A DNA stretch of 64,000 nt from Candidatus Bathyarchaeota archaeon. GTDB lineage: Archaea > Thermoproteota > Bathyarchaeia > Bathyarchaeales > Bathycorpusculaceae. The DNA lies in the NCBI GenBank assembly GCA_963827165.1, contig CAWGZR010000004.1:211183-275182 (forward strand). The letters run 5' to 3'. Position numbers and translations under genes: made by a program. The notes beneath the pieces were generated by a model. The model did not search any database. It was given only the letters and a program-made list of their open reading frames with translations, and had not been told where the DNA came from. Positions within the stretch are counted from its first letter, which is position 1. The number at the start of each line of letters is the position of its first letter. Of the stretch, positions 34,119-40,650 are shown piece by piece.

Positions 34119-34904
34119 CTAGAGGTTTTCTGGTCCGAACGCTGGTTCATCGGCTACTGAAGCAACTATTTGTTGGGCGTACTCTTCCTGCTCTTCGTTG
34201 CCGCTGACCGCAAGCCAGCATGCTCCCTCAGCTCCACAGACCCCGCCTGAAGCAATCAACTCAACGCAGGCGCCAGTTAAAGCCGCCAACGCATCCAACT
34301 CGGTGAAAACCTCGCCTGGAACCGGCAGCAAACGGCTTCCACAAGCACCCGGCGCGTTAAGCTTCTGTGCAAGCACAAATAAATCGCCGTTCACCCGCTT
34401 CTCAAGGCCCACAGGGATTATGAGTTTTACTCGGCGACCAACAACCGCGGGCAAAGCCAAACCAATCGTTCCCGCCTTTGGGTGACCAATCAAAACCGCC
34501 GCTTGCCTCCTCGTCAAGTCCAAAGCGTTTGCACCCTTCAAGATGACGTCGCCCTCCTTCAGAGAGTCTACAACATCCTCAATCGACTTCCCCTTCTGCC
34601 AAACCCCCTTAACAATCACAACGTCTCCCGGAAACGCGCTCACATCAGATAACCGCCCTGTTCCAGTCACCGGTTTTTTTGATGGCAGCGTTATGCCGCG
34701 GAAAAAATGTTTCCTCGAAAAATCACATGCGATCTGATGCGTCTTTAGTATCTCTTCAGCAACATATCCATTAGTTGTTCCAGCAACAATGACAACTGTT
34801 CCGTTCTTGAGCGCCTTTTTTACTGCAGGGTGGTTTGCCAGGGTCTTGGCGATTAAACGTTTTCCCGCCGCGGGAGTAATTACAAACTGCTTCAAAGTCA
34901 GCAC
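34119..34904 (-). CDS. Conserved hypothetical protein (CoA-transferase/isomerase-like fold suspected)
   Basis: [48 protein letters not shown]. Confidence 0.7.
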
Positions 34905-35160: not shown

Positions 35161-35598
35161 ATGAGCCAGAATAAACGATTTATCAGATTGACTGCGAGAA
35201 TCAGAAATATTGCCCAACCAATGAAAAAACGGCGAGGCAAAACATTGCTTTTAGTTGCAGTTATTTCCTTCATGGTGGTCCTTGCCGACCCCATAAGCAC
35301 GTATCTCGCATTAGAAATGCCTGGTTTTTATGAAAAAAACGCGATCTCCAGATGGTGGTTAGAACATTACGGAATGCCCGGACTGTTTTTAGCTAACTTG
35401 CTTCCTTTCTTATTCTTTATCCTCTTCTTTTTATTTGGGTACGCCGTCCTCTCATACGCCATCAATAAAAACTTCCAAAAAAACAAAAACATCGCGGATT
35501 GGTTAGTTTTCTTGTTTTTCTTAGGTGTCTTTGTTGCTTTAATTGTTTTGAAGGCGGAAGTGGTTTACAACAATGTACGGTTGCTACTTGGGCATTGA
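35161..35598 (+). CDS. Three-TM membrane protein (DUF5658-like)
   Basis: LADPISTYLAL..FYEKNAI pattern, three hydrophobic helices and a VVYNNV tail. Confidence 0.6.
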   Translation: MSQNKRFIRLTARIRNIAQPMKKRRGKTLLLVAVISFMVVLADPISTYLALEMPGFYEKNAISRWWLEHYGMPGLFLANLLPFLFFILFFLFGYAVLSYAINKNFQKNKNIADWLVFLFFLGVFVALIVLKAEVVYNNVRLLLGH

Positions 35599-35854: not shown

Positions 35855-36967
35855 CTAAAGGGTTTTCACTTTGCATATTTCGTATACAATCAAATGCGGA
35901 TACTTCAAGTAAAACTTGTACAAATGCGGATTTTCTTTTTTCAATTCAACACTTGGATCCGGCTCGTAAATCCTACAAATAGCCAAGTGATTCTCGCAAA
36001 GAGCGCTTGTCATTTCATCAAGAGTAAACCAATGATGCGGATTATCCTTAGCCTTATACTCTATCCTGTAATTAGGCAAACGACCATGAAAACGTCCTTC
36101 CTTTGAATGCGTTATTCCTTTGGCAAGTTGACCAAAAAACGGATGCGCCTCAATAATAAAAAATCGTCCCTGATCCGTCAGAATTCTGCTGATTTCGCTT
36201 AAGGCTTTGGAGAATTCCTGATGGTTATGTGTTTTTCTGCAATAGTCAAAACTCACAACTGTATCTATCGCCACAACATAGTCAAAGTGTTTGCAAGGCA
36301 CGTTTTTTGCGAAATCAAGAAAATCCCCCTGAAAAAATTCTTCGTTATCGAGACATAGCCTTTGTTTGAGATCGTTTGCTTTTTCAATTAGAAATGCGCT
36401 TCTATCAACACCGGTCACGTGTGCTCCCAGTTTAGCCAGAATCGTGGAATAATATCCTGGGCCACATCCAAAGTCGAAGATCCTCTTTCCAGCTATTTTT
36501 TCTTTGGTGAAAAATTGTGTTACAAAATTTTCTACGCAATATTTGTAGTAGGTTCGGCTTTCAGGTCGTATATCTGAAACGTCGTCATAAAATTTCTTTT
36601 TAAACCATTTTTCCATAATTCCCTGCGAATCATCATCTTCCTTCAAAGCTTTGGGAATTGCTGCTTTCATTGCTTTGTTAACCGCTGAAACCACCATAGC
36701 TTCGACGTTTTGCATGGATCCATTTGAAGCATCATTGCCAATGATTTTTTCGCCAAATTCTGAGTTTAGCCATTCTTTGTATTGGGGCAACGTTTTTTCT
36801 ATGACTTCATGGATTGTTGACTGCAGTCTTGCATAATCTTCTGGATCCAATTTTTCGTAAAGCTGAACTTTTTCTGAAGGTGCATTGTGGTGTTGATTTT
36901 GCTTTTCGGTTATTGCAGGCCTTTTAGGGAGGGGTTTAGTGTTTGGTTTATTTTTTGGCAAAAACAA
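35855..36967 (-). CDS. Class I SAM-dependent methyltransferase with an N-terminal precursor-like scaffold domain
   Basis: IFDFGCGPG, GVDRS, FDYVVA. Residues ~38-109 align with the leader and follower of the 38735-39160 peptide. The likely start is the TTG at 36961. Confidence 0.9.
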   Translation of the reverse strand: MFLPKNKPNTKPLPKRPAITEKQNQHHNAPSEKVQLYEKLDPEDYARLQSTIHEVIEKTLPQYKEWLNSEFGEKIIGNDASNGSMQNVEAMVVSAVNKAMKAAIPKALKEDDDSQGIMEKWFKKKFYDDVSDIRPESRTYYKYCVENFVTQFFTKEKIAGKRIFDFGCGPGYYSTILAKLGAHVTGVDRSAFLIEKANDLKQRLCLDNEEFFQGDFLDFAKNVPCKHFDYVVAIDTVVSFDYCRKTHNHQEFSKALSEISRILTDQGRFFIIEAHPFFGQLAKGITHSKEGRFHGRLPNYRIEYKAKDNPHHWFTLDEMTSALCENHLAICRIYEPDPSVELKKENPHLYKFYLKYPHLIVYEICKVKTL

Positions 36968-37026: not shown

Positions 37027-38613
37027 TCAATAATATGGAACGATTATTTTTATAGGATAATTTCTTTTCGAGCTTGCCGTTTTTCCCATGCTTAATCGGT
37101 TCCACTCCGAACGGAGATTTTCAAATCGGTTGCTATCGGGCAGAGGTGAATAAAAATAACTATAATTATTTCCGGTTTTTTCTTTGCTCAGCTCAATTCC
37201 ATATTCTTGCGGGTTATTGGAAATTTCTGAATCAGGCAAAACCCCAAAACGTGAAATGCTGACTTGATCAATAAATTCTTGGTTTTGCTCCAAGAAACCA
37301 ACGGATTGTTCGAAATCTCTCTGAGTTTCTCCTGGAAAATCTACTATCATGAATGTCAAAACGCGAATGCCATTTTTTGCGGTATCGCGGATCACGTTTT
37401 TAGCCGTTTCTATGTCGTACCCTTTTTTCATTTTACGAAGAATTCTCTGCGACCCAGATTCTATGCCAAACCACAAGCCTATGCAACCCGCCTGCCGCAT
37501 TTTCCCAAGCAACTTGTCATTCATTTCAGAACGAACTCTAGCCATGCCCATCCACTTCATTTCGACGTCTTCTTCAATCAATAAATCACAGAGTTTCTCC
37601 AACGATTTGATATTGCAATTAATCAAACTGTCATTGAAGCGAATAGTAGAAACCCCATATTTTTCTTTGACATATTTGAATTCCGAAACTACGTTTTCCG
37701 GTGACCGCATCCGATACGTATTACCCCATAAACGTTTTTCAACACAAAAAACACAATCACCAATACAACCTCTAGATCCGACAACCGGCATTATAGGCAC
37801 CCCAAACTTATTCTGAGGATACTCCCACAACGGCAAATCATCGTAATCCGGAAAAGGCAAATCGTCAAGAGATTTAATTAAAGGTCGATCCGCGTTAGAA
37901 ATAATTTTGCCGTTCTCTCTGTAGGAAATTCCTGCGATTCCCCTTAATGATTCTAAACTTCCGTTATAGGAAATAGCTACTTCAGAGATTGTCGATTCGC
38001 CCTCCCCTCGAACTATTAAGTCAATTTCGGGGTGGATTGACAGAACTTCTTCCCATGAGGCGAATGCTGGACCGCCCAAAACAGTTAAAATTCTCGGTTG
38101 AATTTTCTTTAATTTGCGTGAGAGAAGTACACTCCAGAGCAAACCAGTGTGGGTTATTACATGAAATCCCACAATACTTTGACTTTTGGTATCGGCGGCA
38201 ACCTCTAAAAACCAATCATTACAAATTTTCCAAACATCTAACAATGTTGCCTGTTTTGATTCTTCGCTGATAATACCTTTGAACACCGAATTTGAATGGG
38301 GATAACCTAATTTATCAGAAGCCTCTCTTAGCATAATTTCTTCGAAAAGTTTTTGGCCATCTTGAATTGTTGAATAAATTTCTGCCTCGGGAACCTTTGT
38401 CCATTTCGCCTTTCCCTTGTTATCGCTTTCTCTTAAGATTTTTGCAGGGTTGATTTCGAGTCCTTGATGGAAAAGAGTCAAGTTAAAAGATTTAATGTTT
38501 AGATCAAAGGTGCTTACCTTTTGTTTGCTTGCCTTTAAGGTGCTTGTCAAGTATGGAATTGCAGGATAAGGAACCAAGGATGAAACTGGCGGGATGCAAA
38601 GAAAAACAGGCAA
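37027..38613 (-). CDS. B12-binding radical SAM protein (class B methylase-like)
   Basis: Cobalamin-binding domain (IVGF..LGGP..IDLIVRGEGE), LDDLPFPDY, SRGCIGDCVFC, GIESGSQRIL, FPGET. Confidence 0.93.
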   Translation of the reverse strand: MPVFLCIPPVSSLVPYPAIPYLTSTLKASKQKVSTFDLNIKSFNLTLFHQGLEINPAKILRESDNKGKAKWTKVPEAEIYSTIQDGQKLFEEIMLREASDKLGYPHSNSVFKGIISEESKQATLLDVWKICNDWFLEVAADTKSQSIVGFHVITHTGLLWSVLLSRKLKKIQPRILTVLGGPAFASWEEVLSIHPEIDLIVRGEGESTISEVAISYNGSLESLRGIAGISYRENGKIISNADRPLIKSLDDLPFPDYDDLPLWEYPQNKFGVPIMPVVGSRGCIGDCVFCVEKRLWGNTYRMRSPENVVSEFKYVKEKYGVSTIRFNDSLINCNIKSLEKLCDLLIEEDVEMKWMGMARVRSEMNDKLLGKMRQAGCIGLWFGIESGSQRILRKMKKGYDIETAKNVIRDTAKNGIRVLTFMIVDFPGETQRDFEQSVGFLEQNQEFIDQVSISRFGVLPDSEISNNPQEYGIELSKEKTGNNYSYFYSPLPDSNRFENLRSEWNRLSMGKTASSKRNYPIKIIVPYY

Positions 38614-38734: not shown

Positions 38735-39160
38735 TTATTCGAATTGATCTTTCAAAGCTTGACGAATTGCGCCTATCATTGCCTCGTTAACAGCATTAAC
38801 AACCATATCGTCCATTTTTCTATTTGGCGTAGGGCAATCGTTACCGCATGAACTGCACAAAGGTGTCGGACAGTCGTTTCCACATGAACTACAAAGCGGC
38901 GTCGGACAATCGTTGCCACATGAACTGCACAAAGGTGTCGGGCAATCATCAGCCGCAATCAAAGAAGTAGCTACCCACTGCTGATATTCCGGTAGAGTTT
39001 TTGCAATGGTATCTCGAATTGTTGACTGAAGTTTTGCATACATCTTAGGATCCAGTTTTTCAACAGGCGGCATTTTTGCTAAGAGTTTGTTTAACCGTAT
39101 CTTTTGTGCTGGGGTCAGTTTTTTTGAGGAAGCGTTAGATGTAGATTTATTTTTTGACAA
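38735..39160 (-). CDS. Putative RiPP precursor with an internal Cys-rich repeated core
   Basis: 141 aa: helical leader, (DCPTPLCSSCGN)x3-DCPTP, helical follower; lies between two radical SAM genes. Confidence 0.85.
   Translation of the reverse strand: MSKNKSTSNASSKKLTPAQKIRLNKLLAKMPPVEKLDPKMYAKLQSTIRDTIAKTLPEYQQWVATSLIAADDCPTPLCSSCGNDCPTPLCSSCGNDCPTPLCSSCGNDCPTPNRKMDDMVVNAVNEAMIGAIRQALKDQFE
38825..38947 (-). repeat. 36-nt coding tandem repeat, 3.4 copies
   Basis: GATTGCCCGACACCTTTGTGCAGTTCATGTGGCAAC / GATTGTCCGACGCCGCTTTGTAGTTCATGTGGAAAC / GACTGTCCGACACCTTTGTGCAGTTCATGCGGTAAC / GATTGCCCTACGCCA. Confidence 0.95.
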
Positions 39161-39195: not shown

Positions 39196-40650
39196 TTAAT
39201 GTTTGTTGTGAAGCAAATCCTGAGCAGGATTATTTGGTAGAATTTTTTGAGTTCTGGTTTTTTGAGATTCCATCAGGAAATTGTATGAAATTAGGAGCTT
39301 TAGTATTTCATTTTGAAAAGTGCAGAAGTAGTCCTCTTTAATGCCAAGTTGCCCAGTCTTAACATAAATATCGTATGCGCATCCCCCGCCGCAAATTCCA
39401 ACCGCAGCACACCTCATACAGTCTTTATTCTTAAGCGTGCCCATTTCCAGCCACGTATAAAACAACGGTTCATCCTGAACCTTCAAATCATCTTTAATTG
39501 GAATCTGATACTTTCCCGACGGATAAAACGCATGGCACGGCCCCACTGTCCCAGTTGGCGAAAAAAACAGCAGTTGACCAAACGCCGGGCAATCGTAAAT
39601 ATGGAATATTTCTTTGAAAAAATAATTGGCCCGCCGATTATCAATACGGTCTTCAAACATTTTTAGTTCTTTTGCTTTTAAGTAGGCTCCAAAAAGATGA
39701 TGGGCAAGTTGTTTGGGGTCTGGAACCTCAAATTCACTTGGCTCTTTAAGCCGGGTCAACAAGTTAAAGCCTATGGTTCTGACGCCTAATTTCTGGATAA
39801 ATTCTATTATTTCTTCTGCATGCATATAGTTCTGCTTCGTGATTGTACATGATATTCCCGTGTTTACACCCGCCTCTTTTAGAAGCGCCAACGCTTTGAG
39901 TGCTGCGTAAAAGGTTTCTTTTCCATCCGTGAAAACACGGTTTTTGTCAATGGCAGCCCACCCATCAAGCGACAACCCCACGGTAACATCATGCTGCTTA
40001 AGTTTCTTAGCCATAGCTTCAGTTATTAGGCTTCCATTTGTGACACAAGAAAAAAAGAATTTTCCCTTAGAAGCCGCCTCAAGCTTCTCAATAATATAAA
40101 ACACAATTTCACTATTACTAAACGGCTCACCCCCATAAAATGTGACCCTGTATTCAGGAACTTGCTTTGCCTCGTTAACTATAACATTTATGACTTTATC
40201 AGCCAAATCCTTAGACATCACTGTACTTGGACCTTTGAGAGAGTTCTCTATAAAACAGTAACCGCACCTAAAATTGCAGAAATCGGTAACCAAAATGTAG
40301 GCAAGGTTGGTTTGTGGTTTTTTTCTAAGCAAGCTAGCCGCAACAGTTTCAAAAACTTTTTCCCCATTAAAGCCTTGAGGCACCAAAAATTTTAGTTCCA
40401 TTAACTCCTTAACGTCCTTGCTATGCGCGCCCTTACTCAGATCTGCCAAAACCTTTTCGTATTTTTTGTTGGTTAAGTACACTTTCTTTAGAGTTAAAGA
40501 ATTGAAAAGACACTTCGTCGATTCATCAACATTGAACAAGTGGACAAACGGCGAAAGAACCAATTGAGCAAGCTCTTCGCGGGGCATTTGCACAGAAGGC
40601 TGGTTCTTATTCACAATCGCATTAACCGCCTCAGATCGTTTCTTGCTCAT
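39196..40650 (-). CDS. Radical SAM/SPASM peptide maturase-like enzyme
   Basis: CNFRCGYC, FYGGEP, VTNGSL, GLSLDG; SPASM CPAFG..GPCH..CMRCAAVGICGGGC..YFC; ~110-aa N-terminal extension resembling an RRE. Confidence 0.92.
   Translation of the reverse strand: MSKKRSEAVNAIVNKNQPSVQMPREELAQLVLSPFVHLFNVDESTKCLFNSLTLKKVYLTNKKYEKVLADLSKGAHSKDVKELMELKFLVPQGFNGEKVFETVAASLLRKKPQTNLAYILVTDFCNFRCGYCFIENSLKGPSTVMSKDLADKVINVIVNEAKQVPEYRVTFYGGEPFSNSEIVFYIIEKLEAASKGKFFFSCVTNGSLITEAMAKKLKQHDVTVGLSLDGWAAIDKNRVFTDGKETFYAALKALALLKEAGVNTGISCTITKQNYMHAEEIIEFIQKLGVRTIGFNLLTRLKEPSEFEVPDPKQLAHHLFGAYLKAKELKMFEDRIDNRRANYFFKEIFHIYDCPAFGQLLFFSPTGTVGPCHAFYPSGKYQIPIKDDLKVQDEPLFYTWLEMGTLKNKDCMRCAAVGICGGGCAYDIYVKTGQLGIKEDYFCTFQNEILKLLISYNFLMESQKTRTQKILPNNPAQDLLHNKH

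Follow-up and report, generated by a model that had tools for sequence, protein, structure and literature searches.

The N-terminus of a bathyarchaeal methyltransferase is homologous to the neighbouring Cys-repeat precursor peptide and is predicted to pair with it

The stretch of DNA analyzed here (the window) comprises 64,000 nucleotides of contig CAWGZR010000004.1 from Candidatus Bathyarchaeota archaeon, an archaeon of soil. The list of its open reading frames (ORFs) revealed four adjacent cluster genes on the minus strand, which encode a SPASM radical S-adenosylmethionine (SAM) enzyme, a precursor peptide, a B12-binding radical SAM enzyme and a class I SAM methyltransferase (MTase). We found that the first 114 residues of the MTase are homologous to the whole of the 141-residue precursor, and this region is referred to below as the N-domain. 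The middle of the precursor is composed of three 12-residue Cys repeats followed by a terminal DCPTP, and the order of the precursor, the two radical SAM enzymes and the MTase is conserved among related loci. The genes and the parts of the MTase are as follows.

35855-36967, minus strand: MTase, 370 residues, class I SAM-dependent
36626..36967, minus strand: pseudo-precursor N-domain of the MTase, residues 1-114 (BLASTP, hhalign; 19/19 related loci)
36755..36844, minus strand: leader-like helix, MTase residues 42-71 (AlphaFold2; predicted local distance difference test score (pLDDT) of the block about 72-75; best-conserved part of the N-domain; in the predicted interface)
36713..36754, minus strand: linker, MTase residues 72-85, at the place of the lost Cys-repeat core (alignment gap; Cys-free in the window; residues 79-85 of low pLDDT)
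36623..36712, minus strand: follower-like helix, MTase residues 86-115 (AlphaFold2 helix; in the predicted interface)
35855..36622, minus strand: catalytic domain, MTase residues 116-370, and stop codon (Pfam Methyltransf_31)
37027..38613, minus strand: B12-binding radical SAM enzyme, 528 residues (Pfam Radical_SAM and B12-binding)
38735..39160, minus strand: precursor, 141 residues (leader 1-70; core about 71-112, at 38825-38950; follower helix 113-141)
39196..40650, minus strand: radical SAM/SPASM peptide maturase, 484 residues (Pfam Radical_SAM; N-terminal domain resembling a recognition element of peptides that are synthesized by ribosomes and modified post-translationally, that is, a RiPP recognition element (RRE))

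Comparison of the precursor with the MTase by BLASTP gave an E-value of 6e-15 with 43/122 identical positions, and the alignment ran from near the N-terminus through the end of the precursor, with 41 gap positions that coincided with the Cys repeats. When 19 N-domains were aligned with 39 precursors by hhalign, the probability was 99.95% and the E-value 2.7e-38 over 111 columns, and the single large gap was again found at the core. These results confirmed the claim of an earlier annotation made from the letters of the window alone (the sequence-only reading) that the MTase N-terminus is a copy of the precursor. Its count of 19/29 identical residues in the leader block became 19/30 in our recount, and its count of 13/19 for the follower string was correct, corresponding to 13/24 over the longer follower block. 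The start strings that it had matched between the two proteins are real; the extreme N-terminus, F-L-S/P-K-N-K, occurs in both proteins and hardly varies among N-domains. Additionally, the similarity at the DNA level starts ~18 nucleotides upstream of the start codons (local score of 68; 200 shuffles averaged 22 and reached 39 at most), and the translation-start region was therefore carried along in the duplication. The window's own genome (3.13 Mb on 14 contigs) contained just two copies of the scaffold, the precursor and the MTase N-domain.

The clades of the MTase differ in what is left of the core. In clade A, which contains the closest enzymes (358-374 residues), a short linker occupies the place of the former core, with one Cys in many members and none in the copy of the window. 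In clade B (384-402 residues, 64-69% identity), a two-Cys D-D-C ... C-P-T-P segment lies exactly at the core gap and, judged by its sequence, is a recognizable remnant of the repeats; near the point where the core ends, similarity to the clade B domains is also seen in a free precursor, P0217. Among the linkers of 47 full N-domains, 26 contained no Cys, 16 contained one Cys and 5 held a CPT-like remnant, as approximately counted with a regular expression. The sequence-only reading had described the MTase N-terminus as a core-less copy with a Cys-free linker at the core position, which holds for the enzyme of the window and fails for the family as a whole, since remnants or single Cys residues persist in these 5/47 and 16/47 N-domains.

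A quick tree search with 74 leader-plus-follower sequences (122 columns) placed 29 N-domains and one 130-residue fragment, probably a broken N-domain, in one group that was nested among the precursor lineages, with a support of 87 in the SH-like approximate likelihood-ratio test (SH-aLRT) and a support of 99 for clade A. The tree agrees with one ancient event of duplication and fusion and, with so few columns, does not prove it. Taken with the homology, which spans the 5' flank and the entire precursor, and the decayed core in a subclade, the grouping strongly supports the suggestion of the sequence-only reading that the precursor gene was duplicated and fused to the MTase, and on sequence grounds we regard this origin of the N-domain as close to certain. 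A copy of the precursor gene, including its translation-start region, was joined in frame to the MTase gene at its 5' end, apparently once, in an ancestor of this bathyarchaeal genus. The Cys-repeat core decayed after the fusion, leaving the two-Cys CPTP remnant in one subclade, one Cys in many members and none in the window. We also observed seven precursors (P0118, P0144, P0147, P0202, P0214, P0221 and P0222) with an extra Lys-rich C-terminal tail of about 30-45 residues past the follower helix, and these branch apart from the main precursor group in the tree.

Relatives of the MTase formed 94 clusters in the protein collection, where the precursor family formed 163. The N-domain profile matched 50 of the 94 MTase clusters, and both helices were present in 47. 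Five of the remaining 44 clusters were shortened gene calls of close relatives, which start inside or after the domain, and nearly all of the others belonged to a distant clade C (49-62% identity, over the catalytic domain only). A scan of species-representative genomes revealed 19 related loci, all in metagenome-assembled genomes (MAGs) of Bathyarchaeota. Both an MTase with the N-domain and free precursors with full repeats were present in all 19 loci, and the gene order SPASM enzyme, precursor, B12 radical SAM enzyme and MTase was found in 18, locus L013 having no B12 enzyme. The N-domain was kept across clades down to about 62-65% identity. The sequence-only reading had allowed for a one-off fusion if orthologous MTases in homologous clusters lacked the domain; with the domain carried by 19/19 related loci, the fusion is not a one-off. 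When 401 genomes were sampled evenly across the class, 4 proved to contain the gene, and these belong to a single genus (3 of 40 other members and the genome of the window); within this sampling, no other genus has the domain.

When 1.84 billion representatives were searched by profile, 19 matches were obtained at E<=1e-3, and the scaffold was found solely in precursors, fragments, this MTase family and one repetitive protein of 476 residues. The latter (P0229, E-value of 3.6e-5) was judged spurious as a further carrier of the scaffold, and no enzyme beyond the MTase family was found to carry it among these representatives.

In 8 of the 19 loci (L010, L011, L012, L015, L017, L019, L022 and L023), a second complete free precursor lies directly upstream of the MTase, between the B12 radical SAM enzyme and the MTase (for example, L011:6428-6820), which makes three precursor-derived units per cluster. 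This arrangement shows the ease with which a precursor gene can land where such a fusion could form. Frameshifts were present in several loci, including L018, L019, L021, L022 and L023; these are MAG assemblies, in which a sequencing error and a real break are indistinguishable. In the clade B locus L018 (6962-7380; also P0218 and P0051), the reading frame changes between the N-domain and the catalytic part, with the shift located inside the decayed core, and P0048, a protein of another genome, begins in that shifted frame as well. Either a genuine split or an assembly error that recurs could account for this.

The MTase monomer was modelled with AlphaFold2 from a 47-row alignment (mean pLDDT of 69.5). 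The model revealed a disordered region (residues 1-41), a helix (42-71), a low-confidence loop, a second helix (86-115) and a well-defined Rossmann-type domain, and the N-domain was joined to the catalytic domain by a low-confidence stretch comprising residues 110-136. The full-length MTase was then modelled in complex with the precursor, each with its own alignment, in three runs and with three controls. The interaction prediction score from aligned errors (ipSAE) was 0.62 for the MTase-precursor pair (0.55, 0.63 and 0.62 in the individual runs) and 0.00 for the best control; of 80 solved complexes, 58 attained this mark, as did 2 of 110 mismatched pairs, a calibration that is only rough with self-made alignments. 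The runs shared at least 44% of their contacts, and the pLDDT of the partner was at least 57.

The confident interface of this complex comprised residues 36-77 and 87-111 of the MTase and residues 11-55 and 115-140 of the precursor in an antiparallel arrangement. The antiparallel packing is evident from the closest residue pairs, in which MTase residue 51 lay against precursor residues 43, 44 and 47, residue 59 against 33, 36 and 37, residue 67 against 26 and 27, and residue 63 against 132 and 136. The positions in contact are homologous positions of both chains, and the predicted complex has the form of a pseudo-symmetric bundle of two paralogous hairpins. The sequence-only reading had proposed that the leader and follower helices form a docking or dimerization scaffold. 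The model pairs these helices and thereby supports binding of the MTase to the precursor; it does not demonstrate it. The N-domain itself is not an RRE, since the model contains two long helices and no strands in this region.

Of the explanations considered, the best supported, to which we give about even chances, is that the N-domain is a pseudo-precursor docking module that grips the real precursor. The hairpin of the N-domain would pair antiparallel with the equivalent leader and follower helices of the true precursor, and the resulting pseudo-symmetric four-helix bundle would tether the catalytic domain to its substrate. The core loop of the substrate, probably already modified by the radical SAM enzymes, would then be open to methylation. 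Recognition would thus proceed through the pairing of a substrate paralogue with the substrate and not through an RRE in the MTase. A more far-reaching proposal, which we put forward tentatively, is that the precursors natively dimerize as antiparallel helical hairpins by way of the leader and follower helices and that the captured copy in the MTase replaces one protomer. This would provide leader recognition independent of an RRE, with a one-step origin by duplication of the substrate gene that was possibly recurrent (P0059, described below).

To describe the constraint on each part of the MTase, ratios of nonsynonymous to synonymous polymorphism (pN/pS) were calculated by the Nei-Gojobori method and pooled over the 105 pairs of 15 intact coding sequences; the regions are short and the values noisy.

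Residues 2-12, extreme N-terminus: pN/pS 0.50
Residues 13-37, tail: pN/pS 0.46
Residues 38-71, leader-like helix: pN/pS 0.22
Residues 72-87, linker: pN/pS 0.32
Residues 88-111, follower-like helix: pN/pS 0.72
Residues 115-370, catalytic domain: pN/pS 0.18

The leader-like helix is under purifying selection and is about as constrained as the catalytic domain (0.22 vs 0.18), and the follower-like helix is much less constrained (0.72). The mean ratios of nonsynonymous to synonymous substitution rates (dN/dS) of the regions gave an identical ranking.

Several of our results weigh against docking on the precursor. The monomer model of the N-domain is only moderately confident (block pLDDT of about 53-75), the binding is a prediction with the rough calibration given above, and both the catalytic domain and the precursor core lie outside the confident interface, leaving the model silent on catalysis. 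Homologous amphipathic helical hairpins may also be an easy case for a structure predictor. Residues identical between the two paralogues were not enriched at the interface (21/35 interface residues vs 11/19 others; Fisher p of 0.55), and a test for enrichment at the interface at the family level was likewise negative (Mann-Whitney p of 0.49). The weak constraint on the follower-like helix sits poorly with a bundle that requires all four helices. Finally, bacterial relatives of the MTase have no such domain, and because these work without it, the domain is not essential to the chemistry.

The N-domain might dock elsewhere in the cluster, and the sequence-only reading had named the RRE of the radical SAM enzyme as another possible target. 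As a leader mimic, it would bind the RRE-like domain of the SPASM enzyme, or the B12 enzyme, and plug the MTase into the maturase complex, such that methylation follows cross-linking without release of the substrate. The AlphaFold2 model of the SPASM enzyme contains strands (residues 30-60) and then helices (61-109) at its N-terminus, with a pLDDT of about 55-78. The RRE is described in PMC12406949 as a winged helix-turn-helix with a three-stranded β-sheet and a three-helix bundle, and the strand-then-helix order of the SPASM N-terminus agrees with the description given there. Foldseek revealed cyclopropyl synthase TigE as the top match of the SPASM enzyme; in profile searches against the PDB, the enzyme aligned with TigE (8vpo, E-value of 6.1e-34) along almost the entire sequence (query 24-489) and, from residue 65 onward, with CteB (5wgg/5why, E-value of 1.2e-35), and no match to Pfam PqqD was found at E<=10. 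Judged from the model, the SPASM maturase probably reads the leader in the usual way through its RRE-like domain, which leaves room for docking of the pseudo-precursor there too. The F-L-S/P-K-N-K start that is shared with the precursor and nearly invariant among N-domains is in favor of this explanation, as is the archaeal Crp system, where, according to PMC13692751, the RRE is predicted to recognize the precursor by its first 5 residues. We nevertheless consider docking on a radical SAM enzyme unlikely: residues 2-12 are only moderately constrained (pN/pS of 0.50), a mimic tethered at all times would be in competition with the true substrate for the RRE, and the SPASM model is poor as a whole (mean pLDDT of 56.6).

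Another explanation places the partner within the MTase itself. The fused copy would act as a leader in cis, binding its own catalytic domain and holding it in an active state, and the MTase could then act on substrates whose leader is occupied or removed. A leader appended in cis to a tailoring enzyme gives constitutive activity, as reported in PMC13003496, and the N-terminal position of the copy, joined to the catalytic domain by the low-confidence stretch 110-136, would suit such a role. The complex model set the N-domain helices against the precursor and not against the catalytic domain, and the bacterial MTase homologues have no such copy; activation in cis is, in our view, distinctly unlikely.

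We attach still less weight to the explanation that the N-domain is a relic or spacer, fused by neutral accident because a precursor gene stood immediately upstream of the MTase, and now tolerated as N-terminal ballast. Such accidents would come easily in the 8/19 loci with a free precursor gene directly upstream of the MTase, the core has decayed, the constraint is weak in the follower-like helix (0.72) and in the tail (0.46-0.50), and in at least one locus (L018) the domain is broken by a frameshift. On the other hand, sequencing errors in the MAG assemblies may explain the frameshifts, the constraint on the leader-like helix is on a par with that on the catalytic domain, and 19/19 loci, as well as clades down to about 62-65% identity, have kept the N-domain. 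That the N-domain is still a substrate, cross-linked or methylated in the clade with the two-Cys CPTP remnant to give a self-modified enzyme loosely like the borosins, is highly improbable, for although clade B N-domains hold the short D-D-C ... C-P-T-P segment at the core position, the linker of the window and those of 26/47 full N-domains have no Cys, and every locus has free precursors with full repeats.

The distant relatives of the MTase place the proposed pairing of the N-domain with the precursor within a wider family. They were found in MAGs of Verrucomicrobiota, Bacillota and Alphaproteobacteria (L024:4760-7894, L025:2896-5880, L026:6911-9808 and L032:4928-7771). In these bacterial clusters, a FibroRumin-like SPASM enzyme (218-236 bits vs TIGR04136) adjoins the MTase, and there is no B12 enzyme. 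The bacterial precursors contain a leader, Cys-rich repeats and a helical follower, with other repeat units such as C-x3 in Bacillota, and the cross-domain spread of the cluster type suggests horizontal transfer. The bacterial (clade C) MTases have only short N-extensions and no pseudo-precursor; the possibility that these extensions are copies of their own precursors was rejected, with z below 2 for L024, L025, L026 and L032. Because the bacterial relatives lack it, the domain is an addition in Bathyarchaeia to an older cross-domain cluster type.

Three further sequences related to clade C were observed. The N-terminus of P0059 (320 residues, from a single contig), a clade C MTase, resembles the leader and first core residues of Bacillota-type precursors (z of 6.2 and 8.1; 0/200 shuffles), and this protein may represent another, independent fusion of precursor and enzyme or else an artefact of gene calling. 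In P0064 (412 residues), also a clade C MTase, the N-terminus is like the Cys-rich C-terminal end of a SPASM enzyme, and its sequence would fit either a fusion of a radical SAM enzyme with an MTase or a read-through gene call. An ORF in a Methanoregula MAG (L046:7061-7384) covers the C-terminal 107 residues of a clade C-like MTase, with no radical SAM enzyme or precursor seen nearby, and probably represents what is left of a gene.

According to the usual view, RiPP enzymes locate their substrates via RRE domains or dedicated leader-binding sites. The N-domain shares with RRE (PqqD-like) recognition the presumed purpose of guiding a tailoring enzyme to its substrate's leader and differs from it in structure, with two long helices, no strands before residue 162 and no Pfam match; an assignment as RRE was rejected because the winged helix-turn-helix fold is absent from the AlphaFold2 model. 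In borosins and burpitides, the precursor core is fused to an MTase or cyclase and serves as the substrate, at the C-terminus in borosins, and the borosin α-N-methyltransferase domain differs from generic class I MTases. These systems are similar to the MTase of the window in that a precursor-derived sequence and a tailoring enzyme, an MTase in borosins, are contained in one polypeptide. In contrast, the window MTase has lost the core, carries the fusion at its N-terminus, is accompanied by free precursors in 19/19 loci and is a generic class I MTase. A fused precursor-MTase of the borosin type was rejected, since the N-domain of the window contains no Cys or repeat and no borosin-type domain was found (Pfam and Foldseek gave class I matches only).

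The closest analogue is the engineered leader-enzyme fusion, in which a copy of the substrate recognition sequence is likewise attached covalently at the N-terminus of the modifying enzyme, as described in PMC13003496. Such fusions, made with lanthipeptide synthetases and other tailoring enzymes, are well established in engineering and release the enzyme from its dependence on a separate leader. Those fusions are man-made, contain the leader only and fill the leader-binding site of the enzyme itself, whereas the window MTase is natural, has a follower block as well as a leader block and, by prediction, pairs with the homologous helices of the substrate. The Crp system of Methanococcus voltae is similar in that an archaeal Cys-repeat substrate adjoins a SPASM radical SAM enzyme with a predicted RRE (PMC13692751). 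According to the same paper, the neighbouring gene products CrpA and CrpB have almost identical N-terminal 47 residues, and Crp binding is aided by domain-domain contacts beyond the RRE and the leader. Crp differs in that CrpB is a second Cys-bearing protein and not an enzyme, and the portion of PMC13692751 available describes no MTase fusion. We found no natural tailoring enzyme with a core-less copy of its own precursor in the literature searched, whose coverage leaves out most subscription journals, and no paper in it matched FibroRumin or the combination of Bathyarchaeia, RiPP and radical SAM.

The N-domain appears to be a natural, conserved fusion of a copy of the substrate scaffold to a tailoring enzyme, with a visible series of core decay. 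If the pairing with the precursor is real, it would represent a simple evolutionary route to new enzyme-substrate specificity and a ready-made orthogonal tethering module for engineering, and it would supply a rule for genome mining, namely to seek enzyme termini that resemble neighbouring small ORFs. The analysis also flags an uncharacterized cluster family, a Cys-repeat peptide with a SPASM radical SAM enzyme and an MTase, that is common to Bathyarchaeia and several bacterial phyla.

A Pfam/NCBIfam scan showed that none of the enzymes in the cluster of the window attains a curated family cut-off. The catalytic domain of the MTase matched Pfam Methyltransf_31 (2.2e-19, residues 160-275), and all of its Pfam matches were class I families (Methyltransf_31, _11, _25 and _23). 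Foldseek with the MTase model revealed generic small-molecule class I MTases only, which gave no clue to the substrate atom. The B12 radical SAM enzyme is likely of the C-methyltransferase type. It scored 30.7 against a cut-off of 32.1 for Pfam B12-binding, and its membership in ApyD (NF050148; 164.8 bits vs a cut-off of 750) or TIGR03975 (155.9 vs 281.85) was rejected, both scores lying under the curated cut-offs. For the SPASM enzyme, FibroRumin TIGR04136 was the top-scoring family, and CteB was the solved structure with the strongest sequence match. Assignment of this enzyme as a FibroRumin maturase (184.7 bits vs a cut-off of 400) or as a Crp-type radical SAM enzyme (CrpC family TIGR04463; 91 bits vs 525) was likewise rejected. 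The precursor matched no Pfam or NCBIfam family at E<=0.01, including the known leader families (NHLP, Nif11 and others), and for the N-domain, the precursor and the N-termini of both radical SAM enzymes, Pfam at E<=10 yielded noise only. No protease or exporter was recognized beside the cluster in the ORF list and the family scan of the window. By analogy with what has been argued for CrpA, the product of the cluster could be a modified small protein.

Minor features were also observed within and beside the cluster. The 3' end of the SPASM ORF of the window (39196-39234) extends 13 codons beyond the stop position of its orthologues in L005, L007, L011 and L014. Two genes flank the cluster: the gene at 35161-35598 on the plus strand encodes a DUF5658-like membrane protein, with a score below the cut-off, and the gene at 34119-34904 on the minus strand encodes a protein of 261 residues with no Pfam or NCBIfam match, a homologue of which lies ~4 kb downstream of the MTase in L020.

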